Assembly: GCA_043745805.1 (NCBI GenBank)
Contig: JAYTSD010000004.1
Location: forward strand, 94,543-158,542
From: Fibrobacteria bacterium
GTDB taxonomy: Bacteria; Fibrobacterota; Fibrobacteria; UBA11236
Length of the DNA stretch: 64,000 bases
Reading direction: 5' to 3'
The notes beneath the pieces were generated by a model that was given only the letters and a program-made list of their open reading frames with translations, ran no database searches and had not been told where the DNA came from. Both the position numbers and the translations under genes were made by a program. Of this stretch, positions 8,081 to 25,006 are shown in pieces; position 1 is the first letter of the stretch; each line of letters begins with the position of its first letter.

Positions 8081-9355
8081 ATGAAATCATTTTTTTCTCT
8101 CTTTGTATGCCTTGCAAACTGTGTGACAAACACTATAGCTTCAGTCTTTCCTATTTTTACCTATGAAAAAATCGAGGCTCCCAGCGAAAATTATCGAGAG
8201 TCCATGCAAATTTTTGATATGGATAAAGATGGTGATTTAGACTTTACTTCCGGTGGCGGAATAGCAGGCAAAGAATTTTGGTTCGAAAATAAACAAGGCA
8301 CTTGGATTCGACATGTTTTACATAATAGCATCAATGATGCCGATGTCGGTGCCATAGTCGCTGATTTTAATGGCGATGGTTGGATGGACTTAGCAAGCGG
8401 TTCAAATGTTTATCTGCATCCAAGTATTCATCACGATCAAGAATTTATTGCCGTCAAAACCGGTGCCATGGATTTTACCCATGATATGTTTGCTGCGGAC
8501 ATTGACAAGGATGGAAAAACCGATATTGTTACCCTTGATTATAGCGGATTATATTGGTTTAAAAACGTTCTTCCCGACACCTCACAACTATGGACGAAAA
8601 CTCAAGTTGAAGGACGGCGTTTCGATCAACCTCATGGAGGCTTAGCCTTGGGTGATATAGATAATGATGGCGATATTGATATTGCGCGTGTCGACCGATG
8701 GTTTGAAAATGTAGATGGCAAAGGAGCGCAATGGAAAGAGCGCGACAGTTTAGACTTCGGACAAATAAGTAGTTGGGGGAAATCAGGAAAAACTCGTTTA
8801 GTTGATCTGGATAAGGATGGAGATCTTGACTTAATGCAATCGGATTGCGATGTACCCAATGCCCAAGTAGCTTGGTTTGAAAATTTAGATCATGGAAATA
8901 GCTGGAGTAAGCATTTAATCAAGGACAGCACCGACTTCCAAGACTTTCACACTTTGAACATTAACGATTTTAATGGGGATGGAAATCTCGATATACTCGC
9001 CTGCGGTGGACCCATAACCGACAGTGTTCCCAAATGTTATATCTGGGAAAATTTAGGACAAGCTAAAAGCTGGCAAGAACATATTATTTATACCGGCAAA
9101 ACCAATTGCCATGAAGGAATTGCCGGCGACTTCGATGGAGATGGCGATTTGGATCTGCTTTGTAAAGGCTGGCTTAATTTCCATTATATTTTAAATAATC
9201 AACTCATCCCTTCGAGTATTGCCACAAAATCCACACGCGCAAAATTAGCGCCGTCCTTAATGAAAATTATGCGAAATGGAAAAGTTATTTTTTCTTGGGA
9301 ACAACAATTCAGAGATTTGCAAGGCAAAACAATTCCCCAAAAAATCGATAAGTGA
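8081..9355 (+). CDS. Secreted FG-GAP/VCBS-repeat beta-propeller protein
   Basis: Signal peptide. Multiple DxDGDGxxD / FNGDGxxDL calcium-binding-like FG-GAP repeats. Confidence 0.6.
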   Translation: MKSFFSLFVCLANCVTNTIASVFPIFTYEKIEAPSENYRESMQIFDMDKDGDLDFTSGGGIAGKEFWFENKQGTWIRHVLHNSINDADVGAIVADFNGDGWMDLASGSNVYLHPSIHHDQEFIAVKTGAMDFTHDMFAADIDKDGKTDIVTLDYSGLYWFKNVLPDTSQLWTKTQVEGRRFDQPHGGLALGDIDNDGDIDIARVDRWFENVDGKGAQWKERDSLDFGQISSWGKSGKTRLVDLDKDGDLDLMQSDCDVPNAQVAWFENLDHGNSWSKHLIKDSTDFQDFHTLNINDFNGDGNLDILACGGPITDSVPKCYIWENLGQAKSWQEHIIYTGKTNCHEGIAGDFDGDGDLDLLCKGWLNFHYILNNQLIPSSIATKSTRAKLAPSLMKIMRNGKVIFSWEQQFRDLQGKTIPQKIDK

Positions 9356-9411: not shown

Positions 9412-10079
9412 ATGAATACTATGAAGCATGCGCTTTTCTATTTAATACCCTTTCTCGCTTTATTTCACTTAAGTTGCATAGAATATTCTTTGACGCGAGT
9501 TGATTATCTACACACTCAATACGCTTCCCCTCAAGGATTGAAAACCGCGAATAATATTGATAAAGGCTTACATGCAAGCTTAACTTCCAGTATTAGCACT
9601 CAAGATACTATCACCACTACTACCAAACACACTACTGTTGGAGGAGATGATGATAAGCGAGTTGAACCAACCCAGGCTAACAACTATTCGACTCTCAATG
9701 AAAATAAATCGGCAGAATTATCTCTGATTTATGTCGACAAAAGTTATGCGCTGGGAACAAATCTGCAGTTTTCGCAAGTGGGAAAGGAATTATTTCAGAT
9801 ACCGCCATAATTGAAGGCAATGGCAAAATATTACCCAATTTCAGCTTATACTTTAACAGAACCGTTTTCGACAAAATCAATATGTGCTATGGAATTGGGA
9901 TTTATTATTTCCCAGACAGTTATAATTTGGGTGCGAACCTGTTCTATGTTCCCATAACCTTGAACATTGGTTTAAGAACGAGCTATGTCATCAATCCGAT
10001 GATAGGGATTAGTTATGCCTTAAATAGCATAGACGGTAAATCACATGTCTTTCATTTTACCGCTGGGTTTGAGTATTGA
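9412..10079 (+). pseudogene. Putative small outer-membrane beta-barrel protein split by a frameshift (signal-peptide N-terminal ORF plus a C-terminal ORF ending ...FHFTAGFEY)
   Basis: ORF 9412-9810 has a signal peptide. ORF 9882-10079 is in a different frame and ends with an aromatic terminal residue typical of OMP beta-barrels. Both frames are open across 9708-9810. Confidence 0.3.
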
Positions 10080-10581
10080 TTTTATAACCCTTCTTTGAAA
10101 ATGTAAACGCTATAGGTTTTGTAAAACTAATAAGGTTTGCGAGATATATTATAAGAGACTAATTACACACACCTAATCAAGGTGCAGAGTTGAGCGTTTT
10201 TTCAAAAAAGAAGACCAGAGTTTTAAGAACTCATCTAGGGATATTGGCTCCCCCTTTGTCGATAAATCCCAGGCATCAACAGCTCCCGATCCCGATGGCA
10301 CTCTGATAGAAACCCCACCATCCTCAGACATAGTGACTACAGCAGGCTTACCGCCAACAGAAAAGAATCTTTTACCCTTTGAAAGCGACCTAGGATCCAA
10401 CAGTTCCGGCATATGAAATAATTTAACTCCTGCGTTAGAAAAATGCTGAATTTGGGCTCGAATTGTTTAGGTACAGTGTTTCCTAGGATATGTGGAGAAT
10501 GTGCTAAAAGAAGGTGCCTTATGCCCCTCTCTCGCACAGAATAAAAATGCATCTAAACAAAAAACCAGTAATTGTTTTGTC

Positions 10582-11009
10582 GTTTCAACTCACGCACTCA
10601 TAAAGAGCGCGACATAAGTCCACTAAAGGCGGCTTCGATGTATTCCTGTTTCAATCCATGCGCTCGTGAAGAGCGCGACTTGGCTGTTACCTGTTTTTCC
10701 ACCGTGTTGGTCGGTTTCAATCCACGCGCTCGTGAAGAGCGCGACACGAACAATAGGCGTACCAACCAGACGCCTTTTGGTTTCAATCCACGCGCTCGTG
10801 AAGAGCGCGACGATGTCTTTAACTGTCTTCAGCGCCGCTTTATTGGTTTCAATCCACGCGCTCGTGAAGAGCGCGACTACCTTTCCATTTATATCAGCCG
10901 ACAATTCAAAAGTTTCAATCCACGCGCTCGTGAAGAGCGCGACTTTATGCTTTCTGGTTTAACATCCGAGAGATCGAGTTTCAATCCACGCGCTCGTGAA
11001 GAGCGCGAC
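10582..11009 (-). CRISPR. Type I-C CRISPR array: 7 repeats of 32 bp and 6 spacers of 34 nt. Transcribed repeat GTCGCGCTCTTCACGAGCGCGTGGATTGAAAC. The leader-distal repeat (10582-10613) is degenerate.
   Basis: Exact repeats at 10714, 10780, 10846, 10912 and 10978, plus a 1-mismatch copy at 10648 and a degenerate copy at 10582. The internal hairpin GCGCTC/GAGCGC and the GTGGATTGAAAC 3' end match the I-C repeat family. Spacers are uniformly 34 nt. Confidence 0.92.
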
Positions 11010-11176
11010 TCCTTACTTCTAAGCTTAGTTAATACCTGCACTTAGAAGTGTAGATCCGCTGACCTACGTTAAATATGTAAGAGATTATTTCAAAGAACTC
11101 AAGAGTGCCCAAATGCGCTCTGATTTCGGTGCGCTAAGCCTATGTGATTTTGTGTCAGCTTTAGGTTAGCGATTGA
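11010..11176 (-). promoter_or_regulatory. CRISPR leader (between cas2 and the first repeat)
   Basis: Non-coding 167 bp between the cas2 stop and the leader-proximal repeat. The degenerate repeat lies at the opposite end of the array, as expected. Confidence 0.5.
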
Positions 11177-11467
11177 TTAAATGATCAAAGGACCATGAAG
11201 ATCTGCTGTAGGCTTTGAACCAAAATGTTCGACTCGACGTTCCCAATTACTTCCTAGATAATAAAATCGAAGACTATCTTCCTCCGCCTTATAAATCGCA
11301 AGAAGTTTACTTTTTAATAGTTCCCATTTTGCAGGTTCAACTTCGCATTCAAAAACCGAAAATTGTGCGCGTTGTCCATAATCTTCGCAACATTTCGCAA
11401 TACGACGTAACCTACGTTTACCACCTAAAGATTCGGTTTTAACGTCATAGGTTACCAGCACTAACAT
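11177..11467 (-). CDS. cas2: CRISPR-associated endoribonuclease Cas2
   Basis: 96 aa with MLVLVTYDV...FSVFECEV motifs. Confidence 0.9.
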   Translation of the reverse strand: MLVLVTYDVKTESLGGKRRLRRIAKCCEDYGQRAQFSVFECEVEPAKWELLKSKLLAIYKAEEDSLRFYYLGSNWERRVEHFGSKPTADLHGPLII

Positions 11468-11470
11468 TTA

Positions 11471-12499
11471 TTATCTCCAAATATAAGGTGGATAATAATC
11501 CATATCTCCGCGAATAGTTCGAGCTAGCAATAATGCCTGCACATGAAATAAAAGACCCATCTCCACTTTTTCATTTAAGAACGGATGAGTGATTTCTTCA
11601 CTTTTTCTTTTTTGATAAGCAATAAGAACTGCTTTTCGTGTACCGCTTTCCATTTCAACAGCACCATTTGGCGAAATAATAAAACCATTACTATCAACTT
11701 GTTTGAGGTTAACCAAGCTAAGTGCTAATCGATCTGCAAGACAAGCACGAAACTCTTCAATAATGTCTAAAGCTAAACTAGCGCGACCGGGTCTATCCGT
11801 ATGAAGAAATCCTGCCGATGGATCAAGTCCCACACCTTGTAAAGCAGATTCAATATCATTAGTAACAAGCGCATATATAAAAGACAGTAAACAATTTATT
11901 CTATCAAGAGGAGGTCTTCGGTTACGTCCTGAAAAATTAAATTCTGGTTTTTGATGAAGTATAAGGTGATTAAAAACACTAAAATATACGCTTGCGGATT
12001 CCCCTTCAATACCGCGAGCTATCTCAATATCCTGACAACTTTTAACTTTTTGCAGATAATGTCCAAGTCGAGTAATTGCGATTTGAATTTTTCCTTCATC
12101 TTCAAATTCGTGATTGCGTAAGGCACGCATTAACACGGCGCGAGAATTTCCAATCTTTGCAGCCAATAAAGCTTGAACATAGCGAATGCTCTGTTGCTTA
12201 TCATCGGCAATACGATATTGATGTTTGCGAAGCAAAATATTTCCACTTTGCGGCCCCACAACACGACCAAGAAACCTTCCTCTTTCAGTAAAGAAGGCTA
12301 ATCCAACATTATTTTCAGCACAAAATCCAATAGCGAAAGGAGAGATTAAAACATTTCCAAAACACACTACATTCCAAATACCGTGAATAGGAATTTGAAA
12401 AACTTTTTTACCATCGTGTTCAATAATTAAGGTCTCGCGTTGTTTATGCACATAACTGCCTTGGGTCGTTATGTATAAGGTATTGAGATGCTTTTTCAT
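11471..12499 (-). CDS. cas1: CRISPR-associated integrase Cas1
   Basis: 342 aa in Cas1 context, with a 4-nt overlap with cas4. Confidence 0.9.
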   Translation of the reverse strand: MKKHLNTLYITTQGSYVHKQRETLIIEHDGKKVFQIPIHGIWNVVCFGNVLISPFAIGFCAENNVGLAFFTERGRFLGRVVGPQSGNILLRKHQYRIADDKQQSIRYVQALLAAKIGNSRAVLMRALRNHEFEDEGKIQIAITRLGHYLQKVKSCQDIEIARGIEGESASVYFSVFNHLILHQKPEFNFSGRNRRPPLDRINCLLSFIYALVTNDIESALQGVGLDPSAGFLHTDRPGRASLALDIIEEFRACLADRLALSLVNLKQVDSNGFIISPNGAVEMESGTRKAVLIAYQKRKSEEITHPFLNEKVEMGLLFHVQALLLARTIRGDMDYYPPYIWR

Positions 12500-13158
12500 A
12501 AATCAAATAGGGACTGAAAATATTTTGATGAATGTGATATTGGATTCCAAGGCAGGCAAATATTTTGCAGCGAACATGCTTTACATTTTTCTCCAGGTTC
12601 AGCGGGTGGTGTTTTCCCTTCGCGAAATAAAACATGTAAGCGTTCAGCTGTTTCAAACGTTTTTTGACGCAATTCAGCATCAAGTAATACAATTTGTCTT
12701 CGCCGAGTTTGATGATAAAAAAGGTCTGCTTCTGTTAATGAAATATTAAACGCTTCTTCTAAACAAATTGCTTGAGCGCAGAGTTGTACATTGTCGTAAG
12801 GACCAGTTTTAACCTTTCCACGTTTATATTCTACAGGCCTTGGGAGCCAAAGACCCGTTAGTCCAAACTTTTCCAAACCGATTCCATGGATAGTATCTTT
12901 TGTGGTTCGACGAAATTCAACCACATCCGCTTTACCACTTACTTTTAGCTGCTGACTTTTGATAGGAAGAGATCGCGTAACATACAAGTCACTGCGTTTT
13001 TCATCCTTACCACTATCAACTTTTTCGTGCAAAATTTGACCTTGTATTGTGAACGTATTTTCCTCCCATGCGCGCTCCAAATGGATCAATGCGCATTGAC
13101 GCTCGCAGAACAAAATGTGCTGGAGCGCCGAAATGGGGAGGAAATCTTCTTCGTTCAT
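12496..13158 (-). CDS. cas4: CRISPR-associated exonuclease Cas4 (RecB-like nuclease with a C-terminal Cys cluster)
   Basis: 220 aa with a CERQCALIHLE N-terminal Cys and a C-terminal CKACSLQNIC Fe-S motif. Confidence 0.85.
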   Translation of the reverse strand: MNEEDFLPISALQHILFCERQCALIHLERAWEENTFTIQGQILHEKVDSGKDEKRSDLYVTRSLPIKSQQLKVSGKADVVEFRRTTKDTIHGIGLEKFGLTGLWLPRPVEYKRGKVKTGPYDNVQLCAQAICLEEAFNISLTEADLFYHQTRRRQIVLLDAELRQKTFETAERLHVLFREGKTPPAEPGEKCKACSLQNICLPWNPISHSSKYFQSLFDL

Positions 13159-13191
13159 TATGGCTATTGCTATTTTAAATAGCGATATTGA

Positions 13192-14133
13192 TCACGCCAT
13201 ACGAATTAATTTTACACCATTTCCCAAGTCTCTATTTGATCCTACATCTGGAAGTGGTTTACCATCAAATAGAACGTCATAATCATTAAATGATCTAGCT
13301 GGGCCAGTACTTCCTTCTCTGCGCTTGACTTCAGCACGTTCAAATAAAGTATGAGCGGGAGAATTACCAAGGGCAGAACTGTGTTCAAATACAAGGAGTG
13401 GTCGTGTGGACATAAGGCCTCTTGCAGCCGATCGATCATGCTCAAACATATTTTTTAGTGCTTCCCAAAAAACTGTAAGATCATCTTCAGTAAATTCTGT
13501 TTGTGCTGCGAGATGCGCCGAGATGAATCCATGTGAGCGATAAAGCCCATACGGAATTGTAAATTTACGACCCATAGTACGATTATCTCCACCTTGCTTT
13601 TCAGCATCAGCTTCAGTAGTTACCGCCATACGAGTGATGCTATGCTCTAACACTACAACTGGCTCGATTGAACGAGCAAAAGTCATTTGAATAGGTCCAC
13701 GAACTTGTCCAGCATTTGCACCTGTACTCATAACAGCACCGAATGTTCGAATATCAAAATATGTTTTGCACATACGTGATCGGCCCTTGCTTATTTCGCT
13801 TCCTTGAGCATCACCTTTACTATTACGTTTCTTCCCGTCTTTAATATCCTGAGGTTCTTTCTCAAGGTCTATTCCAAGATCAGCGTAGGCACCAGCTATT
13901 TTTTGATTTAATATAGCCTTCTCTTTTACGAAAATATCATACGTTGGTTTACCTTCATTTGTAAGTGAAACAAAATTCCGCACCTTGCGCTTGAGGCAAA
14001 CATCTGTTACTAGCCCCATTCCTGTTTCTGCATCTATACGAGGAAGATTACCGGCATCTGGATCGCCATTTGGATTTCCATCTTGCACATCGAATAATAA
14101 AATGAAATCGTAACGTTTGTTAATAGTGCTCAT
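13192..14133 (-). CDS. cas7: Cas7 (Csd2) type I-C backbone subunit
   Basis: [28 protein letters not shown] signature of Csd2. Confidence 0.9.
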
Positions 14134-14139
14134 GTTTAA

Positions 14140-15870
14140 TTATCCTTCTTTTGTTGGTTGTTCTGGTTTTTCAGATTTTGTGAAAAATGCTTGACGTTGA
14201 TGATAATAACCAATCGCAAAACGCGCTTGATCTTCCATAGATAGATGACTTGGCATATCTGGAAGCATTCCTCCAAAAATTTCCCCAAGGCGTTTTTCAT
14301 GTGCGCCTCGAAATGCATGATTTTCCAATTTCGCTAAATGATGATTCTTTAGTTTTAGTAGTTGCGGAAAAACACTTACTGGACTAGAACTTGCTGCTCC
14401 ATAAAAGCGGTCACGAATAGTAGCATTAATTCCTGGTTGAGCATCTTCTTGAATTTTTTCGAGCGCAGCAAAAAGTCTTCCTAGCCTATACCCGGGGTTA
14501 GTATTAGTGGAATCAAGTGCCATAGTTATCTCCTGCTGTATTGAATTGAGTTGTATGTTTCGTTTTCGATTAAGGCAACCTTTCAAAAGAGATGCCTGTG
14601 TACGTTTCACTTCACGGTTGGCCCTGATTCGGCGAACAACTTGTTGTAAAAGTGTTGTAGGAAATGGTCCACCTGTTAGGATAGAGCGCATGACGTTTCC
14701 CGCCAGATTTGGAGGAATGTTTTCAATTTTATTTTGAAGCGCTATATCAGAAAGCAAGAAGAAGAGAGCGTAACTTCCTTTGTCTCCATTGGGCTTCACA
14801 ATTTCTAAGTCTTTAAAATATTTTTGAAGATTTTCAGAGAAATCAGCTACTGTACCAGTATGCCAAAACCGTACAGATACTCTAGCCGCATTGGGCGAAA
14901 GTCCTAAAACAAAAAAACGTGCGTCTTCATTTGGAAGACTAGATCCTGTATAGGGACTTTTCAAAAGCGTTTCAACTGCTTTTATATCTCTATCGGGATC
15001 ATCTTTACTCACACTCCAGTAAGAAAAAAAATCTTCCTCTAGCGATGTTTTTTTGTCGGACCAAAATACTGTAGTAGCATCGCCAACCTGAACTTTGTTT
15101 TTCGAATCGCGACTGAGTAGCATATTTAGAGCTGTCGTATAGGCAAAAGTTGCAAAGTTACTGATCGGAGCGTTCTTATTTTGTTCTTTTCCATAGGAAC
15201 GGAAAGCCGATAAATTAAAGGAACTTATTGCTCCTCCTGCTGGTTGCGCATCTCGAACACCTTTGATCGCTGGATGGAGTTGCGATATAGGCGATTTCTT
15301 TCCCAATATTAGGCAAATGCCTTCGCTCGATGAATTAATCGAAACGATACTAGAAGCGAGGGTTTCGCAAATTGAAGTTGATTCTGATCCGTCAATTCTA
15401 AATACAACATTAGAATTGGCATTAACCTCGCACATCTCTTTCCAGATGTTAGCATCTTTGGAACTGGCTTCGATTTGTAAGATAGGATTAGAATCGAGAA
15501 ATCGAATAAGGGCATCGCGATCAGGATGATCAATAAGATTGGTAATCAAACGATTTCGAAAAGCTAAATGTCGAGATGCAGCATCATCTCTTCCGCGGGG
15601 GTTGGCTCCAAGCGCATATTCAATATTATCCCATAAGAGATTAGCTTTTATACCTGATGCTCTTTTTTCTCCGGCTGGAACTAAGAAAGAACGAGTTCGC
15701 CTTTTTTTTCCTTCCCCTTCTCTAGTATCTTCTAATGCTATAAATTTTCCGTCACGATTTATTACTACTACAAATGAGATATCTTTCCATTCAAAACCTT
15801 CGGGTGCGATTCCGCTTTCTGGATCTAATGCCTTTCTTTGATAATAATCATAAAGAGCTTGCAGAATCAT
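14140..15870 (-). CDS. cas8c: Cas8c (Csd1) type I-C large subunit
   Basis: MILQALYDYYQR N-terminus typical of Csd1. 576 aa. Confidence 0.9.
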   Translation of the reverse strand: MILQALYDYYQRKALDPESGIAPEGFEWKDISFVVVINRDGKFIALEDTREGEGKKRRTRSFLVPAGEKRASGIKANLLWDNIEYALGANPRGRDDAASRHLAFRNRLITNLIDHPDRDALIRFLDSNPILQIEASSKDANIWKEMCEVNANSNVVFRIDGSESTSICETLASSIVSINSSSEGICLILGKKSPISQLHPAIKGVRDAQPAGGAISSFNLSAFRSYGKEQNKNAPISNFATFAYTTALNMLLSRDSKNKVQVGDATTVFWSDKKTSLEEDFFSYWSVSKDDPDRDIKAVETLLKSPYTGSSLPNEDARFFVLGLSPNAARVSVRFWHTGTVADFSENLQKYFKDLEIVKPNGDKGSYALFFLLSDIALQNKIENIPPNLAGNVMRSILTGGPFPTTLLQQVVRRIRANREVKRTQASLLKGCLNRKRNIQLNSIQQEITMALDSTNTNPGYRLGRLFAALEKIQEDAQPGINATIRDRFYGAASSSPVSVFPQLLKLKNHHLAKLENHAFRGAHEKRLGEIFGGMLPDMPSHLSMEDQARFAIGYYHQRQAFFTKSEKPEQPTKEG

Positions 15871-16592
15871 TTGCGCACCTCATCGCTGTCCCACGACGGT
15901 AGATTGATTATTCCATTTTTTATGGTTGGTCGAAAAAAAGTAGGTTTGGGATCGGTTGCATCTGAAAAATCCATATCATATAACATGAATCCTAAGTCGC
16001 GTGATTCTGCTATTGGTGGATTCTTAGCTTGCTCTTCAGCTAGATTAGCTTCGCTTAATAAACGGAAAGCACAACTAAATTCACGACAACCTAAATAAGG
16101 TTGATTAAAACATTGTCCTTTAGTGGCTCTGCGCTCAAACATTGCATTGTATTTACCTGGATTCTCATCTTTAGCCCAATCAATACGCTCTTCAACCTCC
16201 ACCAATTCTTCTGAAACTGGGTTCATTATTTTAGGACGCTTCGGTGGTGGTATAAATTCCATTTCAGCATAGAGACGGTAAGCGATATCTCGAAGAAAAA
16301 GCCCTGCACGTTGTTGCCGTTCATCTTCAATTAGAATACCATCACTTCCTGAAGAAGCTATTTTACCGATTTCGTTACGACGCACAGATATCCATCGAAT
16401 TGGATTTAATACTTCAATTTTATTAATTCTCCATACTATTGCGGGCTTCCAAAATATAGCTTCGAAAATAGCACGCGCTGCCGATGGAGTAATAACATCA
16501 TAACTGACGCGCTCTACTTTCATTTCTGGGCGCGTGAAGCAAGCATAGTCGCCTCGAACTTCTAAACAAAATGATCTATTTTTGTAAATCAA
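15867..16592 (-). CDS. cas5: Cas5d (type I-C Cas5 with pre-crRNA processing role)
   Basis: LEVRGDYACFTRPEMKVERVSYDVITPSAARAIFEAIFWKP signature. ATGA overlap with cas8c. Confidence 0.9.
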   Translation of the reverse strand: MIYKNRSFCLEVRGDYACFTRPEMKVERVSYDVITPSAARAIFEAIFWKPAIVWRINKIEVLNPIRWISVRRNEIGKIASSGSDGILIEDERQQRAGLFLRDIAYRLYAEMEFIPPPKRPKIMNPVSEELVEVEERIDWAKDENPGKYNAMFERRATKGQCFNQPYLGCREFSCAFRLLSEANLAEEQAKNPPIAESRDLGFMLYDMDFSDATDPKPTFFRPTIKNGIINLPSWDSDEVRK

Positions 16593-16613
16593 AACAAGGA
16601 CCGTCCTTTCTTT

Positions 16614-18899
16614 TCAATAAATAAATTCCGTACCATCATACACTGGCCCATCAATGCGTAAGCCAAAAGTGTAGTCGTACAAGCCGGAAACACATTGTGC
16701 CCATAATCCAAGAGCACCTTCTGGGCCTATCACTTCCATGATGACCCCTTGATCTCGAAGTTTTTGCCAAACAATTTGAGGCACATTAACTGTGAATCGC
16801 TGAAGACGCCGCATCCGCTCCCGAGTCGGACCATATTTTGTGACTTCTTCTATAATTTCCTGACTAGTAAATTTACTAGTCGCATGCCACACCACAATTC
16901 CACGATACCCTTGCTCATCTATAAGCTGATACCACAAGGCAGCAGACCGAAATTGAAACTGACATCGTCCTGCATCCACTATCAAATGCTGTTTGAATAT
17001 ATCTTTACCAAAATCGTTAACACGTCCATAAAAAAAATGGAAATAGCGTTGAAAAGCTTCCGGTGCTAAACGATGAGCCAGTTCTGGTGCAGTGCGCATC
17101 ACTTCTGCGCCAGCATCTTCCCCTTTACGCAAAAGACCTTGCGGGGATGGCTTTGGTGGATGAAAGATTACTACGTCACCCAGTTTCCCATCCAAATTTA
17201 ATCGACCTTCTCGATTGCATCGTCCAGCAGCTTGAGCGATACTATCAAGTCCGGCCATTGCCCGATAGACAACAGGAAAGTCAATATCCACTCCCGCTTC
17301 GACAAGTTGGGTACTTATGACTCGTAAAGGATTTCCTTTTTGCAAATCGTCTTTAATCTGAGCCACCACCTGTGAGCGATGAACTCCACACATAAGTGCG
17401 GATAAATGCACTGGTGTTTCTCCAGTATGTTTCTGGACAGCTTCCCAAAGGTCACGGCAATCTTGCCGTCGATTAACAATGCACAATACTTGTGAGTGCT
17501 TCGCAAGGGATTGTGACAAAGTCGCCCAATCCACTCGTTCATCACTGTATACACGAAGGGCTACTCGCCTAAGAGTGTGCGCCAAATTAATAGGATCGCG
17601 AATGATTTCACGTACATTATTTATACCATTAAATTTAACTTTGCCGGATCCAATATCCCCAATCAAAGCAGGCTGAGTAGCTGTACACAATACAACCGTG
17701 CATCCAAAATGAGCCACGAGACCTTTTAAGACCGAAAGAGTAGGAGCTAGTTTTTCCGGAGGTAACATCTGCGCTTCGTCAAGGATAATGACTGAATTTG
17801 CAAGATTATGAAGCTTTCTACATCGACTAGTTCGTGCTGCAAATAATGACTCAAATAATTGCACATTAGTAGTAACTACAATAGGTACATCCCAATTCTC
17901 AGATGAAAGTCGTCCTTTTGGTGTCTCTCGATCTAAATCGAGATTACTATGATGCTCCAGAACATTTACTGATCCAAAAATCTTTATGAGCTCTTGTGCG
18001 GTCTGCTCAATTATACTTGTAAATGGAATTGCTACTACTATACGACGCTTATTATGCTTCAGAGAATGTTCTAATGCAAAGGCCACAGAAGAAAGAGTTT
18101 TCCCACCACCTGTTGGCACTGTTAGAGAAAAGAATCCTGATTCCAGCTTTCCTGCCCCTATACAATCTTCTAATACTTGTCTGCGAATTTTGTTTACAGG
18201 AAGATCAAAGAGTTTTTTTTCTTGAAGTTCAATATTCCTTTCTGCATTCCTAATATTAAAAACATCTAAAAGCGCCTTTAGGTTAGTGGTAGAACCACGC
18301 AAAGCCGATTTTTTCGGATCCATAAAGGCTTCTGTGTCTAAAAAATCGGCATCAACTAATGAGGAAAAAAGCATTCTAATCCATAAATGTGCATGCTCAG
18401 GATCAGGAGGTGGCCTGGATTTGGGCATTGCTGCATTTAAAATTTCTTCGGGTATCGGAGCTTTTTTTGTTTCTTCTAAATGCTGTTTATCATTTAATCT
18501 CTCTTCAAGCCCTCGACCTTCTGCCTCCGCTTTTAACCAATCAGGGAGACCCGCATGATGCCCTGCAATTAAATACGCCAAGATTTTCCCTACTCCCCCG
18601 TGACGTGATACAGCATGAATGGCACCCGCTGTACTATGATCAACCTTGCCTGGTGTATTTTCCAAATGAGCGTCTGGATTATAGCCGCTAGCAGAACGAA
18701 TATAGGTTTGAAAATCAGATTTATACTTTCCTAAGTCATGCCAAATTCCAGCTAAGAACGCCCATTCAGCAGAATCAAATGTTGATGCAAAGTTTTCTGC
18801 TAATGTTGCTACTGCTTGAAGATGTTCTTCCAAAGAATGCTGGATCCAATTCCCATTCTCATCTTTCCGAACATGAGCTAAATAATTTGACATACCCAA
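16614..18899 (-). CDS. cas3: Cas3 HD-nuclease/helicase
   Basis: N-terminal HD motifs (HSLEEHL, WHDLGKY), Walker A VPTGGGKT and a DEAQ box. 761 aa. Confidence 0.9.
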   Translation of the reverse strand: MGMSNYLAHVRKDENGNWIQHSLEEHLQAVATLAENFASTFDSAEWAFLAGIWHDLGKYKSDFQTYIRSASGYNPDAHLENTPGKVDHSTAGAIHAVSRHGGVGKILAYLIAGHHAGLPDWLKAEAEGRGLEERLNDKQHLEETKKAPIPEEILNAAMPKSRPPPDPEHAHLWIRMLFSSLVDADFLDTEAFMDPKKSALRGSTTNLKALLDVFNIRNAERNIELQEKKLFDLPVNKIRRQVLEDCIGAGKLESGFFSLTVPTGGGKTLSSVAFALEHSLKHNKRRIVVAIPFTSIIEQTAQELIKIFGSVNVLEHHSNLDLDRETPKGRLSSENWDVPIVVTTNVQLFESLFAARTSRCRKLHNLANSVIILDEAQMLPPEKLAPTLSVLKGLVAHFGCTVVLCTATQPALIGDIGSGKVKFNGINNVREIIRDPINLAHTLRRVALRVYSDERVDWATLSQSLAKHSQVLCIVNRRQDCRDLWEAVQKHTGETPVHLSALMCGVHRSQVVAQIKDDLQKGNPLRVISTQLVEAGVDIDFPVVYRAMAGLDSIAQAAGRCNREGRLNLDGKLGDVVIFHPPKPSPQGLLRKGEDAGAEVMRTAPELAHRLAPEAFQRYFHFFYGRVNDFGKDIFKQHLIVDAGRCQFQFRSAALWYQLIDEQGYRGIVVWHATSKFTSQEIIEEVTKYGPTRERMRRLQRFTVNVPQIVWQKLRDQGVIMEVIGPEGALGLWAQCVSGLYDYTFGLRIDGPVYDGTEFIY

Positions 18900-18944
18900 A
18901 ACCTAACTCCCCACACTCTCAAAACCTGATAGTGAAACAAAAAA

Positions 18945-19913
18945 TCAAACATATTTTTTCGCCGCCGCCTTCAACGTTCCCAACACTTTCGCTCGCAAAA
19001 AAAGCGGATCTACTACTTCCACCTCATCCCCATACCGCAGAATATCCATTAACAATTCCCTTTCATCCCCAAAAGGAAGTTTCAAACGATAACTTCCATC
19101 AGCCAACCACTCTCCAATTTGCTTTGGATGCCATTGCTCTTGCGATACAAATCTCGCTGCTGTTTTATGAAAAATTAATTCTGCTATATGCTTGGCCTTA
19201 CCTGCAAAAATTCCGTACGACTCGGTAAAGTGATCCTGCAAAATATTTTTATCCTCAGAGCGAGCTTTGCTTTTTAAAACTTCTACTCCAGTAATTCGAT
19301 TTAAAGCAAATGATCGAAGACCCTGCCGAAAATGACACCATGCGTCCAAATACCAATTGTCGCGATAACGAACTAAACTTTGTGGACATACCGTGCGCAG
19401 GGTAGCGGTTCCATCGCTACCTCTTATATAATTCAACTTTAATTGCTTACGAAGGAGTACACCTTCGGCGATAGATTTAAAAATACCCTCGCCAATCTTT
19501 CTTGTGCCCATAGGCAAAAGACGTATGCGATTTTCCCAATTGGAAAGTGGAATTTCATTTTCATTTAATAGCTTGGTAAGTTTTTCACGCAAAGGAGCAA
19601 ATTGTTCTTGCAGTATATCGGCGTGCATTTCGCGTAAAATATTTTCTAAGGAAATTAAGGCGGCTAATTCCTCGCCACTAAACCATAAACCAGGTAACTC
19701 ATAAGTTTCCGCATCTGCAAGATCATAACGATACCCCTTATATTTCCTATCGCACAGAATGGGCGCGGCCAGCTTGTCGCGCATGAATTTAACTACACGA
19801 TAAAAAGTAGCCGAAGAGCAATGCAATTCTTTTTGTATTCGCATTGCGGGCGTAGCATATCGATGTTGCATTAAATAGCGATGCAAAGCATAAACCATTT
19901 CAAATCGTACCAT
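18945..19913 (-). CDS. WYL-domain transcriptional regulator (N-terminal HTH, central WYL domain), 45 bp upstream of cas3
   Basis: HTH-like N-terminus (SSATFYRVVKFMRDKL). A literal DNWYLDAW motif within a WYL-like domain. Same strand as the cas operon. Confidence 0.7.
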   Translation of the reverse strand: MVRFEMVYALHRYLMQHRYATPAMRIQKELHCSSATFYRVVKFMRDKLAAPILCDRKYKGYRYDLADAETYELPGLWFSGEELAALISLENILREMHADILQEQFAPLREKLTKLLNENEIPLSNWENRIRLLPMGTRKIGEGIFKSIAEGVLLRKQLKLNYIRGSDGTATLRTVCPQSLVRYRDNWYLDAWCHFRQGLRSFALNRITGVEVLKSKARSEDKNILQDHFTESYGIFAGKAKHIAELIFHKTAARFVSQEQWHPKQIGEWLADGSYRLKLPFGDERELLMDILRYGDEVEVVDPLFLRAKVLGTLKAAAKKYV

Positions 19914-19966
19914 GAACCGGCCCTCATCTAAGGAATATGAATGCTAGTAACTAATTGAAATATCAA

Positions 19967-20029
19967 CTTCATACATTTTGATTACAAATGAATTATTTGC
20001 TTGCGTGTTACTCGGCACTTCGACAGGCT
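19967..20029. repeat. 63-bp direct repeat, copy A (1 mismatch to copy B), upstream of the WYL-cas operon
   Basis: CTTCATACATTTTGATTACAAAT[G/A]AATTATTTGCTTGCGTGTTACTCGGCACTTCGACAGGCT is present at 19967-20029 and 24598-24660. Confidence 0.85.
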
Positions 20030-20039
20030 TGCATGTCCC

Positions 20040-20918
20040 TTATTCGGCTTCTTCGTAGTAGTAGGAATAGTCAATTCCCTTCATGAACATTTCCCGGTCA
20101 TGAATTTTATCGGTTAATGACTTGGTGATCAATTTTTTCAGCATGGAGTTATCCGTCACACTGAGTCTCACGGCTTCCAGATATTTATTTTTATTGATCT
20201 TGCTCCAGTCAACACAGCGGGCATGTTTTTTCTTTAGCATCAAATCCAGCCAGATCCTTGCCGTTCTGCCATTGCCTTCCATGAAAGGGTGGGCAATATT
20301 CATTTCGGTATATTTGTTGATGACATTTTCAATCGAATCTTCCAGCATTTTTTCTATTGCAACTAGCGTAGTTGGCAGAAACCCGGCTGCGGCAAATTGA
20401 AAACCACCTTTGCTGATATTTTTTGTGCGAATTAAACCTGCAAAATCATACAAGCCGCCAAAAAGATAGGCGTGTATTTGCTGCAAACCCTTAACTGTAC
20501 CCACTTCAATACTGTCGATAAAAGAACTTTCAAAAAGAGCATAGGCTTTTGATTTGCTCTTGCCGTCGATCGTTTCTTCGCTGTATAAAAACCACTCAAT
20601 AAAGCGATTTGACTTAGTGTTGGGAAGGTTTTTTGCGAGCGTTATTACACCATCGGAATCAATCACATCGGAAAGCCGTTTTTTTCCATCAGGTGCCAAC
20701 AATTTCAACTGGTTAGTGCCACTACCCAGTTGAAGGTTTTCTTTTTTCAGCTTTGCTTTTAAATATTTCCAGTAATTACGGTTTTTTTCGTAATTTTCCT
20801 GGTCATTTAATACACCCACAATGTCCAGTACGGAAAACCACCAACGAGACCCTGTATCGTTCCACACCGCGCGGACTTCTCGGTCATTAAAAAACCGGAT
20901 GGAAATTTTCTCTTTCAT
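20040..20918 (-). CDS. Fic/Doc-family protein (AMPylation/phosphocholination-type toxin fold) with a Bro-N/DinD-like N-terminal domain
   Basis: Perfect Fic motif HPFMEGNGRTAR. N-terminus RFFNDREVRAVWNDTGSRWWFSVLDIVGVL resembles the Bro-N fold. Confidence 0.8.
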   Translation of the reverse strand: MKEKISIRFFNDREVRAVWNDTGSRWWFSVLDIVGVLNDQENYEKNRNYWKYLKAKLKKENLQLGSGTNQLKLLAPDGKKRLSDVIDSDGVITLAKNLPNTKSNRFIEWFLYSEETIDGKSKSKAYALFESSFIDSIEVGTVKGLQQIHAYLFGGLYDFAGLIRTKNISKGGFQFAAAGFLPTTLVAIEKMLEDSIENVINKYTEMNIAHPFMEGNGRTARIWLDLMLKKKHARCVDWSKINKNKYLEAVRLSVTDNSMLKKLITKSLTDKIHDREMFMKGIDYSYYYEEAE

Positions 20919-21745
20919 GATTTGCCACCCGTTTCGAGCAATTTTCGTTCTGCTATCCGCTCGCGCACCTCAATGAGTGCGTTGTGCAGTTTTTGTTCAA
21001 GCAATTCTTTAGGTGGAAGATTTGTCCAATATTCGGCAACCATTATGTTGTCTTTTTGCATATTGAGCAGTTCCACAAATGCAAAGGAATTTCCCAATTC
21101 CAGGATGAAAAGCTCCAATTCTTTTAGAATTGCATTTTCTAATTCATTTTCAAGGTAGCCTTCTTTCAGACCCAGAAAATCGAGAAAATAAGGATCTTTA
21201 AAATTTCCAGTAAGGTGATTCGCATTCGCTAAGGTTAGTTTTGTATCCGCAATTTCGGTTCGTTCAAATGCTTTACGTTCTATTTGATCCTTTAAAACCC
21301 GCTTGCTCCAGTGTAATTCACTCGCCATGCGGGCATAAAAAAAACGAGCTTCAGGAGGTTTTAAAGGAATTAGCAATAAAAAATGCGACTAGGTTAATTG
21401 TCGTGCCAGTGGAACGACAATCTCGAAATCAGAAAAAACCTCCGCAAACTGCATCATTCGACGAAGATTTTTCGCCTCAAAGCTTTTGCCATAAAGCAAG
21501 ATTAGCTCCTGCGCCAGAGACTCCACAACCTGTTTGCCGTATTCGGCCCGCTCACCCTGTAAAATAGATTCGTTGATCCGTTTACCCACATGCCAATAGG
21601 TTGTTGTAAGAGCATTGTTGACCGCTACAATCGCCTGACGACGACCTTGATCAATAAGCACCTTTAAATCGTGCACCAAATCACCATTGACTATTACAAA
21701 GTTTTGCGCGCTTATTGCAGAGTCAGCTTTTATTTCGTCATTCAT
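20915..21745 (-). pseudogene. DUF1016/YhcG-like (PDDEXK nuclease-family) gene interrupted by one in-frame TAG (21389-21391) at a conserved Trp position
   Basis: ORFs 21389-21745 and 20915-21376 are in the same frame. The junction reads ARQLT*SHFLLL where family members have LTWSH. Otherwise full length. Confidence 0.7.
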
Positions 21746-21758
21746 AATTTAATCCTAA

Positions 21759-22357
21759 TTATCCATTAGTTTCCGGCTTAGGAAAGGTGAGCAGCATTTC
21801 ACGGTAGTAGTTGTATTGCTTTTTGCGGGCTATAAGCTCGGTGAAGGTGTCCAAAATGCGGACGATTTCGGATTGGATTTCGAGGGATTTTTTCGGGTTG
21901 TCGGGGCATGGAACAGGGACTCGGTACTTGTCAGTATCTGGAGTTGCAATCTGTGGCATTTGCATTTTGCTGCCGAGATTCTGAAAGTACGGTTCATTCA
22001 GTTTAAGAAAATGATATAAATACTTGATATGGATAAACTCATTTTGTGAATGATATGACCACATTTCATTCTTGTGCGAAAATGGTTTATCGTAATATTC
22101 AAACTCAATATTACCACGAGATTTAACGACGATAGAAGGCTCTCTATTTATATCCTTCTCTGGAATATCGTTAAAATCGAAAAAGGAAATTGTTTTGCCA
22201 CCTGCAAAAATTTTTAATGGGGCATCATCTTTGTGTAAGACCTTCATTTCACTAGCGGTAATTTTTGTGCCTTTAGTACGCACAAGCACCCCCCCAAGGC
22301 CTTCCACTCTACCGCCACACCTTCAAGCAGTGCTTTCATTGGATTCTGATTACTCAT
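21759..22357 (-). pseudogene. hsdS: Type I R-M specificity subunit HsdS, single-TRD form, frameshifted at a poly-C7 tract (22288-22294)
   Basis: Conserved HsdS start MSNQNPMKALLEGVAVEWKALG is in one frame. The downstream TRD ORF (MEGLGGVLVRTKG...) is in another frame across a C7 run. Confidence 0.6.
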
Positions 22358-23210
22358 GCTTGCCTCTATGCATTTTTTTAACCCCTAGGTCATCGGTAAG
22401 CAAACGCATTTGGTGTATGGCTGTACGGTTCAATAGCTTTATTCTTTCTGATTGTGGCAATCCCTGCTGTATTAAATGAGCATTCAGGTTTTCAAGGTTG
22501 GCAAGACACACCAGATGTGAGACATTTGCATAATCTCGAATGTTACCATTTTTACCATGGTTCTCATCACGCCATTGCTTTGCGGTTTTCCCGAACAGTG
22601 CCATATTCAGCAGATCAGCCTCTGAAGCATACACAAGATTCATTTGCTGATTGGTTAATTCCGCCGGGATCAGGTTTTCTTTGATGGCATCGGTGTGAAT
22701 TCGGTAATTGATTTTAGTGAGTTGGCGTTTGAAATCCCAACCAAGTTTTTTCTGCTCCTCTTCTTTGAGTCGCTGGAACTCTTTAATGAGATAAAATTTC
22801 AGTTCCGGAGAAATCCAGGTAGCAAATTCAAAAGCGATATCCTTATGAGCATAGGTACCGCCATAGCGTCCAGCCTTGGAAATAAGTCCTATCGCATTTG
22901 TTTTTTCAATCCATTGTTTTGCAGAGAGAACATAGCCATTACTGCCACTTTCATTTTTAATGTAACTGAATTCCGTTAGATTAAAATTCGGGTTGCTCAC
23001 GCGTTCCCAAATCCCCATAAATTCAATAGTGTAGCGGGTACTAAGCCAATGAGAAATAACAACACCGGTATGCTCAGCGTTCTTATGTTTGGCCAAATCC
23101 GTCAGCGAGATATAATCTTCAGCCCCCTGATTAAAAAAGGTCACATCACTGCCGATTATTTCAATTTTTTTGTTTTTATCCATTATAGAAGCTTCCTTAA
23201 CGGCTTCCAC
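22350..23210 (-). CDS. KilA-N domain protein (inserted within the hsdS region)
   Basis: About 280 aa, with an architecture typical of KilA-N proteins found in type I R-M loci. The likely true start is MDKNKK at 23183. The C-terminus ...GKHE* runs into the conserved hsdS 5' segment. Confidence 0.55.
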   Translation of the reverse strand: MEAVKEASIMDKNKKIEIIGSDVTFFNQGAEDYISLTDLAKHKNAEHTGVVISHWLSTRYTIEFMGIWERVSNPNFNLTEFSYIKNESGSNGYVLSAKQWIEKTNAIGLISKAGRYGGTYAHKDIAFEFATWISPELKFYLIKEFQRLKEEEQKKLGWDFKRQLTKINYRIHTDAIKENLIPAELTNQQMNLVYASEADLLNMALFGKTAKQWRDENHGKNGNIRDYANVSHLVCLANLENLNAHLIQQGLPQSERIKLLNRTAIHQMRLLTDDLGVKKMHRGKHE

Positions 23211-23260
23211 TCCACCGTCGCCCCATCAAGCAGTCTCTCCATTAAATTCTGATTACTCAT
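23183..23260 (-). pseudogene. Second, truncated copy of the hsdS conserved 5' segment ([25 protein letters not shown])
   Basis: About 67-bp similarity between 22300-22366 and 23204-23270, with the last 25 bp identical. Confidence 0.45.
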
Positions 23261-24002
23261 GCTTGCCTCCTAAATTCCCCTCTTGAGGGGTGGCAGGCTG
23301 CAAGACTGACGGGGTGGATGCATTAAGCATGTAAAAGACAGAAGAATCCACCCCGCCCTTCGGGCACCGCTCAAGAGGGGAATTTTTTTGGGAACTAAGT
23401 TCAGCAGAATTCTTAAGCGTACTCGCTACGGCGTTTATTTCATCTTCACGTATTTTAATAGCTGCAACAACTTTTTCTTTTACAGAAGAGATAAACTTCT
23501 TAACTTCCAAATCAGTGAAATGAATAACTTCTAATTGCAGGCCGCGCAAAATTGCTTCGCGTTGTGCGTCGTACTCCTGTTTAAAATCGTGACTACTCCC
23601 ATCTATTTCAAAGACCAGTCCCAATTCGGGAATAAAAAAATCGACGATGAAATTTCCAATAATGACTTGCCTGTCTATATCATAGCCCAAGGATTTTTTG
23701 TATTTGAACGCTTGCCAGAATAGTACTTCTGCCAGATTTCCAGCTTTTCGAAGCTCTCTGGATCTTTGAGTGAGTTTTTTATTTTTTGGGAGCGCTAAGT
23801 AGTTGAATATCCGCCTCTCAGGAGGGGAATTAAGAAAATGCGACTCTATGTATTTATTCCCCTCCATTGGAGGGGTGGCCGACAGGGCGGGGTGGTAGAA
23901 ATTGGTTTTAAATGTTTGGGTTATCGACCCAAGAATCTTTGGATATACCGTATAGAACTTCTGGATGGTTTCGACGAGGTGGTTAAAATTTAGGATGTTC
24001 AT
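23253..24002 (-). CDS. DUF559 (Vsr-like endonuclease fold) protein with probably non-native N- and C-terminal extensions
   Basis: Core [23 protein letters not shown]...EIDGSSHD...VIHFTDLEV matches DUF559. The ORF tail overlaps a GC-rich hairpin cluster. Confidence 0.55.
23277..23393. repeat. Nested GC-rich inverted repeats (TCCCCTCTTGAGGGGTG ... CACCGCTCAAGAGGGGA, with inner GGGGTGGAT...ATCCACCCC). A related motif CCCCTCCATTGGAGGGGTGGC occurs at 23865-23885.
   Basis: Read directly. These are GC-rich palindromic motifs on both sides of the DUF559 core in otherwise AT-rich DNA. Confidence 0.5.
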
Positions 24003-24408
24003 CCTTCACTGCCATTTTCAATCTCAGCAACAATGGCATCAATATCCGCGCGGAGTTTGTCAATTTTCTTCACTGTGATTTGTATCTCTGAATTAAGTTT
24101 TGTGATATTTATCAATTCGCGTGTGTCTTCGGCAACCACATAGGAGCTCACAGATAGATTGTATTCATTGGCTTCAATGGCATCAAAGTCAACCGATTTC
24201 GCCATATACTCAATATCGACTTTACGATCGAAGGCATCCATGATCTGAGCAATATGATCATCGGTGAGGGTGTTGTTATTTGTCTCTTTTTGAAGAGCGT
24301 GCCGAGTACATATTGCTTAAAATCCCATCCATCGATGGAGCCACGCACGTCGTTTGCAATTTTCCAAATTTGGGATTGTAATTCGGCTCGTTGTGCGGCA
24401 CTTGTCAT
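23999..24408 (-). pseudogene. hsdM: Type I R-M methyltransferase HsdM remnant: about 35-aa N-terminus, frameshift, then about 60-aa C-terminus, with >1 kb deleted internally
   Basis: [39 protein letters not shown] (HsdM N-terminus) and [10 protein letters not shown]...EIENG (HsdM C-terminus) lie in different frames only about 400 bp apart. Confidence 0.65.
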
Positions 24409-24597
24409 TTGTAAAACTCCAGTTTATATAAGAAAATAAATATAGCCTCGTTCCAAGTTGGTTTTCAGGTTTTTCTTTCCGGCGCGTGGATTTATTCTTT
24501 TTGTTAGGAGCGGTTTTTGAAATAAATTTTTTAATGTGGAGCATTGCATGCAACTATCGCTTGCATGAATCGTTTATCATTCATTCACAAAAAAAAT

Positions 24598-24660
24598 CTT
24601 CATACATTTTGATTACAAATAAATTATTTGCTTGCGTGTTACTCGGCACTTCGACAGGCT
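24598..24660. repeat. 63-bp direct repeat, copy B
   Basis: See copy A. Confidence 0.85.
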
Positions 24661-24722
24661 CAGTGACCGAGCAACACGTTCGGGCATAGTGTATACTTCG
24701 GTCACTGAGCCTGTCGAAGTGA
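24647..24722. repeat. Perfect 24-bp-arm inverted repeat (CACTTCGACAGGCTCAGTGACCGA / TCGGTCACTGAGCCTGTCGAAGTG) with a 28-nt spacer. The left arm overlaps direct-repeat copy B. A third partial arm lies at 24847-24880.
   Basis: Read directly. No ORF covers it. Confidence 0.7.
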
Positions 24723-25006
24723 CCAAGATGCAACCGAAATGTTTACGTTCGCAAATTTTCGAATATGTAAGGGCGCTGTGAACGAACCCCACATGCATAT
24801 CGAAAGGGTAGACGAGGATCACGCGAGTTAACACGGTATTTCGTATCTCGGTCACTGAGCCTTTGTCGAAGTGAACGAAACGTGAGTGTTAAATCGTGAA
24901 GCCGAGGCTAGGGGAAGACTTTCCCCTTTATCAAGTAGCCATACATAACCAAGAAGAAAATTTCCCTGCTAGCCAAAACTTCGCTTTTATAGCATAATAT
25001 CAACTT

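Follow-up and report, generated by a model that had tools for sequence, protein, structure and literature searches.

An apparent remnant of a type IC restriction-modification operon with intact embedded genes and a duplicated hsdS 5' segment

The locus analysed here is a 4.6-kb block of restriction-modification (R-M) and associated genes on the minus strand (24408 to 20040) of a 64,000-nt stretch of contig JAYTSD010000004.1 from a Fibrobacteria bacterium; this whole stretch is referred to as the window. Several described systems were used for comparison. In the type IC system NgoAV of Neisseria gonorrhoeae, the half-size specificity subunit HsdS1 (208 aa) is active and recognises GCA(N8)TGC, and a homopolymer tract at the 3' end of hsdS1 switches the specificity via an hsdS1-hsdS2 fusion (PMC9577141). 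Simple sequence repeats are found in numerous type I genes (PMC7383803). The PDC-S families were defined as genes embedded in bacteriophage exclusion (BREX), defence island system associated with restriction-modification (DISARM) and type I R-M operons, and are candidates only; the biological significance of the embedding is still to be explored, a 'genomic sink' being the sole hypothesis offered for its origin (Payne et al. 2024, bioRxiv 10.1101/2024.01.29.577857). That DUF1016, RhuM and Fic genes can stand amid the core genes of type I systems had been noted earlier (PMC9881135). Insertion with long target duplication was described for R-M genes and is marked by direct repeats of > 30 bp and variable length (PMC2853133); the published cases are whole R-M units, proven by empty-site comparison (Furuta, Abe and Kobayashi 2010, PMC2853133).

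The locus is very probably a horizontally acquired type IC (EcoR124-family) operon which lost its R-M function by ordinary mutational decay and retained an inherited scar of the hsdS 5' end. It would thus be a remnant and not a working member of this family, and it belongs to a known kind, the pseudogenised R-M operons, with embedded genes that are likewise of known types. The ancestral layout would have been hsdM - embedded gene(s) - short hsdS 5' scar - KilA-N - half-size hsdS - DUF1016 - BroN protein - hsdR, since intact relatives keep the corresponding gene order, and the genes would have been translationally coupled through overlapping stop and start codons. Embedding of KilA-N in the ancestor of the operon clade would have produced a long target duplication with the two hsdS 5' copies as its arms. 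A 1.14-kb deletion at CTCTTC-like microhomologies accounts for the loss of the HsdM methyltransferase domain, and the G7 tract in hsdS, a TAG codon and a 228-bp deletion in DUF1016 and the loss of hsdR are the other lesions. The features of the remnant, for which each domain assignment was supported by a Pfam scan, are given from 24408 down to 20040 (RBS, ribosome-binding site; ORF, open reading frame; TRD, target recognition domain):

24292-24408, minus strand: hsdM 5' remnant of about 40 codons (MTSAAQRAELQ...GTLF), followed by out-of-frame read-through; Pfam HsdM_N.
23999-24294, minus strand: hsdM 3' remnant ending in AEIENGSEG-stop, 1 nt out of frame relative to the 5' remnant; Pfam N6_Mtase.
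23253-24002, minus strand: DUF559 ORF of 249 codons, intact, domain at aa 76-182; Pfam DUF559, E=5.8e-21.
23272-23385, minus strand: GC-rich extended hairpin on the 3' side of the DUF559 domain; folding -61.6 kcal/mol, z = -4.9.
23183-23269, minus strand: hsdS 5' copy B, consisting of an RBS and a 25-codon mini-ORF (23260-23183); upstream arm of a 71-nt direct repeat.
22350-23183, minus strand: KilA-N gene, 277 aa, intact; Pfam KilA-N, PADLOC PDC-S22.
21759-22366, minus strand: hsdS with its RBS (gene 22357-21759), half-size, single TRD, frameshifted; Methylase_S; includes 5' copy A.
22296-22366, minus strand: hsdS 5' copy A; downstream arm of the 71-nt direct repeat.
22288-22294, minus strand: G7 homopolymer in hsdS (C7 on the plus strand), seen in the sequence.
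20915-21745, minus strand: DUF1016/YhcG pseudogene in two pieces; Pfam YhcG_C positions 4-46/157, tblastn.
20040-20918, minus strand: BroN-Fic gene, 292 aa, intact; PADLOC PDC-S04, Fic motif HPFMEGNGRTAR.

Relatives of HsdS were retrieved with the frame-corrected protein as query, which resulted in > 1000 homologues; loci and proteins are cited below by working numbers (L and P, respectively). The family was assigned as type IC because HsdS matches the solved HsdS of EcoR124II (PDB 7bst_A residues 1-200; phmmer E=1.7e-30), and the 208-position Specificity_I profile of PADLOC was matched at E=6e-83. In L003/L004, the locus of the HsdS homologue P0034, hsdM (516 aa) is followed by RhuM, a 34-codon hsdS 5' fragment, BroN, KilA-N (274 aa), a single-TRD hsdS (210 aa), DUF1016 (346 aa) and hsdR (1033 aa with EcoR124_C). 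The order is hsdM - KilA-N - two-TRD hsdS - BroN - hsdR in L009, a Desulfuromonadaceae metagenome-assembled genome, and hsdM - 87-aa ORF - KilA-N - two-TRD hsdS - hsdR, without a BroN gene, in L095. A gene for HsdR is thus present in L003, L009 and L095, as it is in the NgoAV locus L091, and the relatives' HsdR (L003, L095) carries the EcoR124_C domain. The window is collinear with L003 from KilA-N through DUF1016 (22919-21070, 70% DNA identity over 1.9 kb), and 23215-22294 matches L009 at 83% DNA identity. A full RhuM is present in L003, whereas only the first ~85 RhuM codons are left between hsdM and KilA-N in L095 (6701-6964) and L009 (7722-8000), where they are joined to an hsdS 5' remnant; embedded genes of this operon clade therefore also decay by internal deletion. 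A second strain for comparison of empty site and tract length was not found by exact-protein look-ups (no record for BroN-Fic; only Logan contigs from one run for HsdS and the neighbouring WYL protein).

At least five lesions destroyed the core of the operon: one each in hsdM, hsdS and hsdR and two in DUF1016. For hsdM, Pfam placed HsdM_N positions 1-33 in the ORF 24148-24408(-) and N6_Mtase positions 269-310/311 in the ORF 23999-24241(-), and tblastn with a relative's intact HsdM matched only aa 1-41 (24408-24286) and aa 422-515 (24295-24014). The remnants are 88% (N-terminal, aa 1-41 of L003 HsdM) and 60% (C-terminal) identical to the relative, and the 5' remnant aligns to L009 6157-6285. 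By both searches, the N6-adenine methyltransferase catalytic domain of HsdM is not present. The first-pass annotation, made from the letters of the sequence, had described two hsdM end pieces in different frames about 400 bp apart. The different frames were found again; the separation was not, as the pieces abut at 24292-24294 within a remnant of 410 bp in total, which retains ~40 N-terminal and ~94 C-terminal residues. Relative to L009, 1144 bp are absent. The deletion junction CTCTTC|AAAAAG joins the codons for GTLF (aa 36-39) to those for FKKETNNN (~aa 420); in hsdM of the relatives, the first site reads CTCTTC and the second TTCTTCAAAAAAG or CTGTTTAAAAAAG, a 6-nt microhomology. The junction is 1 nt out of frame, with A5 in the window versus A6 in the relatives.

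In hsdS, the start MSNQNPMKALLEGVAVEWKALG and the TRD stand in different frames on either side of the C7 of the plus strand at 22288-22294, as had been annotated; G8 (or G5) would restore the frame, and a G8 version of the tract would read EWKALGGVLVRTKG. The DUF1016 gene, whose intact L003 copy matches PADLOC PDC-S02 over its full length, carries an in-frame TAG at 21389-21391 (TGG to TAG; QLSW in relatives, QLT-stop here) and an in-frame 228-bp deletion between two GT(A/G)GAAC heptamers, i.e. at a 7-nt microhomology. This deletion takes out most of the PD-(D/E)XK domain, the nuclease core, and leaves YhcG_C positions 4-46/157; tblastn with the intact protein matched aa 16-219 and 296-343 of 346. 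No hsdR-like sequence and no second hsdM-like sequence were found by tblastn in the whole 64-kb window, the former in agreement with the earlier annotation. At the place of hsdR only TAAGGGACATGCA (20030-20042) remains, and a truncated, hairpin-containing repeat begins 10 nt past the Fic stop codon. The lesions of hsdM, hsdS, DUF1016 and hsdR are of the typical spontaneous kind. The core had been called decayed and probably no longer functional, which was borne out by the missing catalytic domain of hsdM, the frameshift of hsdS and the absence of hsdR, with the DUF1016 pseudogene in addition. Since there is no methyltransferase and no endonuclease, the locus would be able neither to modify nor to restrict.

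A collapse of a repeat-rich locus during assembly, with hsdM and hsdR intact in the actual genome, is extremely improbable. The locus does hold direct repeats of 71 nt and 72 nt, and its source appears to be a metagenome-assembled genome, probably of an uncultured member of the Fibrobacteres: the nearest named homologues of the glycogen phosphorylase encoded in the window (72-79% identity) come from Fibrobacteres genomes of that type. However, the hsdM and DUF1016 deletions sit at microhomologies of 6-7 nt and not at repeats of a length relevant to an assembler, and the separate nonsense codon in DUF1016 fits genuine decay. A Logan contig from SRR23617279 is 100% identical to the window over 20439-24651 (4213 bp), both deletion junctions and the G7 tract included. 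Misassembly is argued against by this exact match together with the visibility of the deletion microhomologies in the intact relatives.

The hsdS gene of the window has an architecture of ~200 aa (N-terminal conserved region, one TRD, central region at the end), with the ORF broken by G7. Its central region TEL-IARKKQYNYYRE shows 87-94% DNA identity to the central conserved region of L009. Many HsdS homologues (63-74% identity; E. coli, Neisseria, Moraxella, Kingella) are naturally ~200-210 aa in size with a single TRD, and the same form is present in P0086 and in intact L003, where the same DUF1016 follows. The junction FTEL-(I/T)ARKKQY and the end LLTFPK(P/K)E are common to the window and intact L003. 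Because of this shared junction and end, and because NgoAV HsdS1 is active, the half-size form is older than the decay and no product of it. The single TRD of the first-pass annotation was therefore recovered (Methylase_S) and its use as a sign of decay was not, the half-size form being that of intact L003 and of functional NgoAV HsdS1; single-TRD hsdS genes should not be scored as decay. An origin of the half-size form by recombination between the central and C-terminal conserved regions was considered and rejected in favour of truncation after the central region, which was preferred because of the 87-94% identity of that region to the central region of L009 and the presence of LLTFPK(P/K)E in L003. 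The partial E. coli HsdS homologue P0001 consists of the half-size unit duplicated in tandem and in frame, with a second N-terminal conserved region and a second copy of the same TRD behind the central region; this is a further sign that the N-terminal region is a recombination point.

The G tract of hsdS is a homopolymer within the ORF, and the one other assembly (Logan) also has G7. It was asked of this tract whether hsdS is a live phase-variable gene, ON with G8 and OFF with G7, whose partners HsdM and HsdR are encoded elsewhere in the genome. A G7/G8 tract in an ORF lies within the length range of known contingency tracts, the TRD and the conserved regions downstream of it are undamaged, homopolymer switching is documented for the related half-size hsdS of NgoAV (PMC9577141), and the simple sequence repeats of many type I genes (PMC7383803) point the same way. 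Against this, the adjoining hsdM is destroyed, hsdR is absent and DUF1016 is decayed, so that the decay is locus-wide, and no further hsdM or hsdR lies within the 64-kb window. The LGG codons forming the tract are not present in the retrieved HsdS homologues, which have LGK, LGE or LGD there, so the tract is no conserved switch among the homologues inspected; the NgoAV tract is at the 3' end of hsdS1 and not past the N-terminal conserved region. A live switch is accordingly highly unlikely, and without hsdM phase variation at the tract is biologically moot.

The second, truncated copy of the hsdS 5' segment that had been annotated was confirmed as part of a direct repeat (22296-22366 / 23199-23269) of 71 nt and 82% identity, with a local-alignment score 27 standard deviations above shuffles. 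Its last 24 nt, GAGGCAAGCATGAGTAATCAGAAT, are identical and comprise the RBS, the start codon and five codons. Both the KilA-N and the DUF559 ORF finish with GKHE-stop, as had been noted, and do so because they run into the identical block GAGGCAAGCATGAGTAA. The TAA of the mini-ORF in copy B overlaps the ATG of KilA-N (TAATG). Only KilA-N lies between the two copies; DUF559 is located between the hsdM 3' end and the upstream copy. The proposal that both genes were inserted at duplicated hsdS segments thus held for KilA-N, which is bracketed, and failed for DUF559, which lies outside the pair.

Decayed hsdS 5' remnants with the same TAATG overlap with the KilA-N start were found in L009 (...DVDWKSLGEIT-stop) and L095 (...VE-stop-KSLGEIA-stop). 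A comparable fragment (...VEWKSLGE) stands ahead of BroN-KilA-N in L003, where RhuM, located before this fragment, and KilA-N share the ending GKS-stop. Since the same junction (...EWKxLxxxx-stop, TAATG) is present in L009 and L095, the duplication is ancestral to the operon clade, an inherited scar and no active device. It would mark the site at which KilA-N, with or without BroN, was embedded: right after the hsdS N-terminal conserved region, a copy of the RBS and start being restored on the downstream side. Nobusato and colleagues reportedly described this mode of insertion for R-M-linked genes in 2000. A footprint of insertion or shuffling had been proposed by the first-pass annotation; insertion, of the long-target-duplication type (PMC2853133), was retained, and ongoing shuffling was dropped on account of the inherited junction and the lack of inverted hsdS repeats and recombinase. 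A regular-expression search for an hsdS remnant of the EWKxLGE type upstream of KilA-N in 80 loci returned only the window (also as copy L001) and L009; hits in the L003 family were the intact downstream hsdS start, and the motif test did not generalise beyond the window and L009. No hsdS 5' duplication was found around the embedded BroN gene of the NgoAV locus. In L003, both hsdS 5' copies (8329-8403 and 10016-10086) carry the same small palindromic insert (LSACL(S/P)..RQ) in the N-terminal conserved region, which suggests either that the copies underwent gene conversion or that the insert was already in place when the duplication occurred.

A motif-free test was performed for direct repeats with one copy just past the stop codon and the other ahead of the gene, with similar-sized genes from the same loci as controls. 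Such repeats were detected at 19/72 KilA-N loci (26%), compared to 14/218 controls overall (Fisher p = 2e-5) and 6/138 controls more than 3 kb away (p = 7e-6), or 4-6% of controls. Each KilA-N locus concerned has a repeat sequence of its own; lengths range from 40 to 1700 nt and identities from 73 to 100%, and the downstream copy begins within ~50 nt of the KilA-N stop codon. Examples among L010-L088 are L026 (7909-8015/8865-8971), L018, L023, L030, L046 and L083. Inspection of 70 nt upstream and downstream of 70+ KilA-N genes revealed no conserved cassette termini. In L046 (7490-9709), the 5' end of panC holds an inserted unit made up of the type III Mod 3' end, KilA-N and the 12 initial codons of Res, and 113 nt are duplicated there; the res start reads on in frame into the panC ORF that lies downstream (MVIHPSFPNSPY-MQLIKTIKD...).

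These repeats bear on the view that KilA-N and DUF559 are actively exchanged as cassettes at the hsdS 5' segment, via circles and re-integration. The 71-nt direct repeats bracket KilA-N, the 24-nt perfect block is about the minimal length for RecA-type exchange, direct repeats are enriched at KilA-N loci as given above, and KilA-N genes that are 80-90% identical occur in type IC, another type I family and BREX operons. The event appears to be old, however, because the copies are just 82% identical and the same junction is decayed in L009/L095, where KilA-N differs by 17% in DNA. Moreover, DUF559 is not bracketed by the repeat, conserved cassette ends are absent across 70+ loci, and the NgoAV BroN gene lacks such a duplication. 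The hsdS copies are direct repeats, with no inverted hsdS repeats in a self-comparison; no recombinase gene is present among the ORFs of the 4.6-kb block, all of which are accounted for, and a Pfam scan of these ORFs found no integrase or transposase gene. Active shuffling is very unlikely on this evidence, and an old, inherited insertion scar is preferred.

The KilA-N protein matches PADLOC PDC-S22 (E=2.3e-128, profile positions 1-275/281) and shares 68% identity with its L003 counterpart and 89% with that of L009, the closest KilA-N genes being those of L009 and L095. The family comprises at least 8000 clusters at E <= 1e-10. An AlphaFold model was poor (mean predicted local distance difference test score, pLDDT, 53), and a profile search of PDB sequences with KilA-N gave no match. 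Its placement directly before hsdS, where the stop of one gene overlaps the start of the next, recurs in the intact loci L003, L009 and L095, and for this reason the earlier picture of KilA-N as a recent insert in a defence graveyard was abandoned. Upstream neighbours of KilA-N homologues are HsdM in 10/74 and type III Mod in 9/74 cases; downstream neighbours are HsdS (12/69) and Res/helicase (13/69). Homologues with 60-86% identity are located in BREX operons (L098-L100, after brxC), in L097 and in type III operons (L037 and many more), those in BREX and the L097-type operon showing 80-86% identity to the window gene. In L097, whose type I family is a different one, KilA-N stands between hsdR (EcoEI_R_C-type) and hsdM; the type III operons have it between mod and res. 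In BREX, type I and type III operons alike, the embedded gene is mostly joined to its neighbours by overlapping stop and start codons. By these positions KilA-N is a regular passenger of defence operons and no intruder into a graveyard.

That KilA-N (PDC-S22) is a hitch-hiking mini-cassette which moves among type I, type III and BREX operons by long target duplication is possible but doubtful. Its insertion would re-create the RBS and the first codons of the downstream host gene, so that the host operon would be kept intact and the passenger translationally coupled. If true, the hsdS 5' duplicate of the window would be the best-preserved scar of this process, and a concrete mechanism for embedding in defence systems would be at hand.

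The BroN-Fic protein matches PADLOC PDC-S04 over the whole profile (E=1.8e-155, positions 1-292/292) and has kept its Fic motif. The DUF559 ORF fits exactly between its neighbours: the first codon and the hsdM stop share the ATGA, and the 3' part extends into hsdS 5' copy B. The DUF559 domain is flanked by GC-rich hairpin motifs (CCCCTC..GAGGGG), those on the 5' side lying at 23811-23880. A DUF559 domain with similar Pro/Gly-rich borders, i.e. short GC-rich hairpins encoding Pro/Gly-rich peptides, is also part of a large ORF, in frame with it and immediately before KilA-N, in L037 (5529-7829; ORF of 766 aa) and L039 (5296-7896). This ORF is apparently a type III Mod gene, as judged by its sequence, its place ahead of a Res-type gene and the count of nine N6_N4_Mtase genes among the upstream neighbours of KilA-N homologues. 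Borders and exact fit suggest a small in-frame mobile insertion of DUF559. KilA-N, BroN-Fic and the DUF559 ORF have probably stayed functional by themselves, as candidate genes of defence or regulation.

The whole 4.6-kb remnant is bracketed by a further direct repeat of 72 nt (93% identical), of which just two copies exist in the window, with 0.00 expected by chance:

24589-24660, no strand: right copy of the 72-nt direct repeat, running into a perfect, repetitive extragenic palindrome (REP)-like hairpin (24647-24721) with 24-nt arms.
19958-20029, no strand: left copy of the 72-nt direct repeat, ending inside the hairpin arm; from self-comparison of the window.

The hairpin is complete only at the right copy, the left copy being cut inside the arm, and a partial arm is located at 24847-24873. 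In Rfam, the only hit of the perfect hairpin was below threshold and ascribed to chance. The repeats may be a long-target-duplication scar of the entire operon, or they may represent a local REP-like element that is present twice; recombination between them would delete the remnant. With direct repeats > 30 bp and no mobility genes, both the 71-nt and the 72-nt pair have the hallmarks of long target duplication. No tRNA genes were found at the borders of the remnant, and promoter and terminator scans of the region remained at background level. Next downstream is a WYL regulator gene, then a type I-C CRISPR-Cas system, the neighbour already named in the first-pass annotation, which looks complete (cas3-cas5c-cas8c-cas7-cas4-cas1-cas2 and seven 32-nt repeats). 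It occupies 10573-11027 and 11177-19913, and the WYL-domain gene immediately precedes cas3; of the mere seven repeats in the array, the outermost (10582-10613) is degenerate.

Several points weigh against a horizontally acquired and now dead operon. GC content shows no contrast between remnant and flanks and hence no foreign signature, and an exact-pattern scan of metagenome contigs with the 72-nt repeat gave 0 hits, with no empty-site genome found. The Logan contig may share its read set with the genome assembly and is then not fully independent; it stops inside the 72-nt repeats, so that the join Fic-repeat-WYL rests on one assembly. An hsdM and hsdR elsewhere in the genome, of which 64 kb were seen, could in principle use hsdS after a slip to G8. 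The surviving genes are presumed to be driven by the old operon promoter, and their expression and function are likewise presumed. In itself the locus is one more pseudogenised R-M operon and matters little. The death of the host R-M system while KilA-N and BroN-Fic are intact fits embedded genes that act independently of their host system. A modest lead comes from KilA-N, where embedding is linked with long target duplication: the hsdS 5' duplicate and the enrichment of repeats connect the embedding of defence genes to insertion with long target duplication and suggest a testable route.

With the type IC systems EcoR124I/II, the locus has in common the N-terminal and central conserved regions of HsdS and the end remnants of HsdM, and HsdR of its relatives has EcoR124_C; it differs in that the methyltransferase domain and hsdR are missing, hsdS is frameshifted with a single TRD, and several additional genes stand between the core genes. 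NgoAV shares the half-size HsdS, the TRD of which (P0074) is 64% identical to that of the window, a homopolymeric G tract in hsdS, and a BroN-family gene embedded between hsdM and hsdS (L091). Its tract is at the 3' end of hsdS1, whereas that of the window follows codon 22, where the gene is simply knocked out, and hsdM and hsdR of the window are not functional. Like the embedded candidates PDC-S22, PDC-S04 and PDC-S02, the genes of this clade show full-length family matches and are sited inside defence operons, BREX included; here, however, the host system is dead and two of the three passengers (KilA-N and BroN-Fic) are alive, their role in defence being that of candidates only. Finally, the locus resembles described cases of long target duplication in having repeats > 30 bp around an insert without transposase or integrase (71 nt around KilA-N, 72 nt around the remnant), and differs from them in that the inner case is a single embedded gene within an R-M operon.

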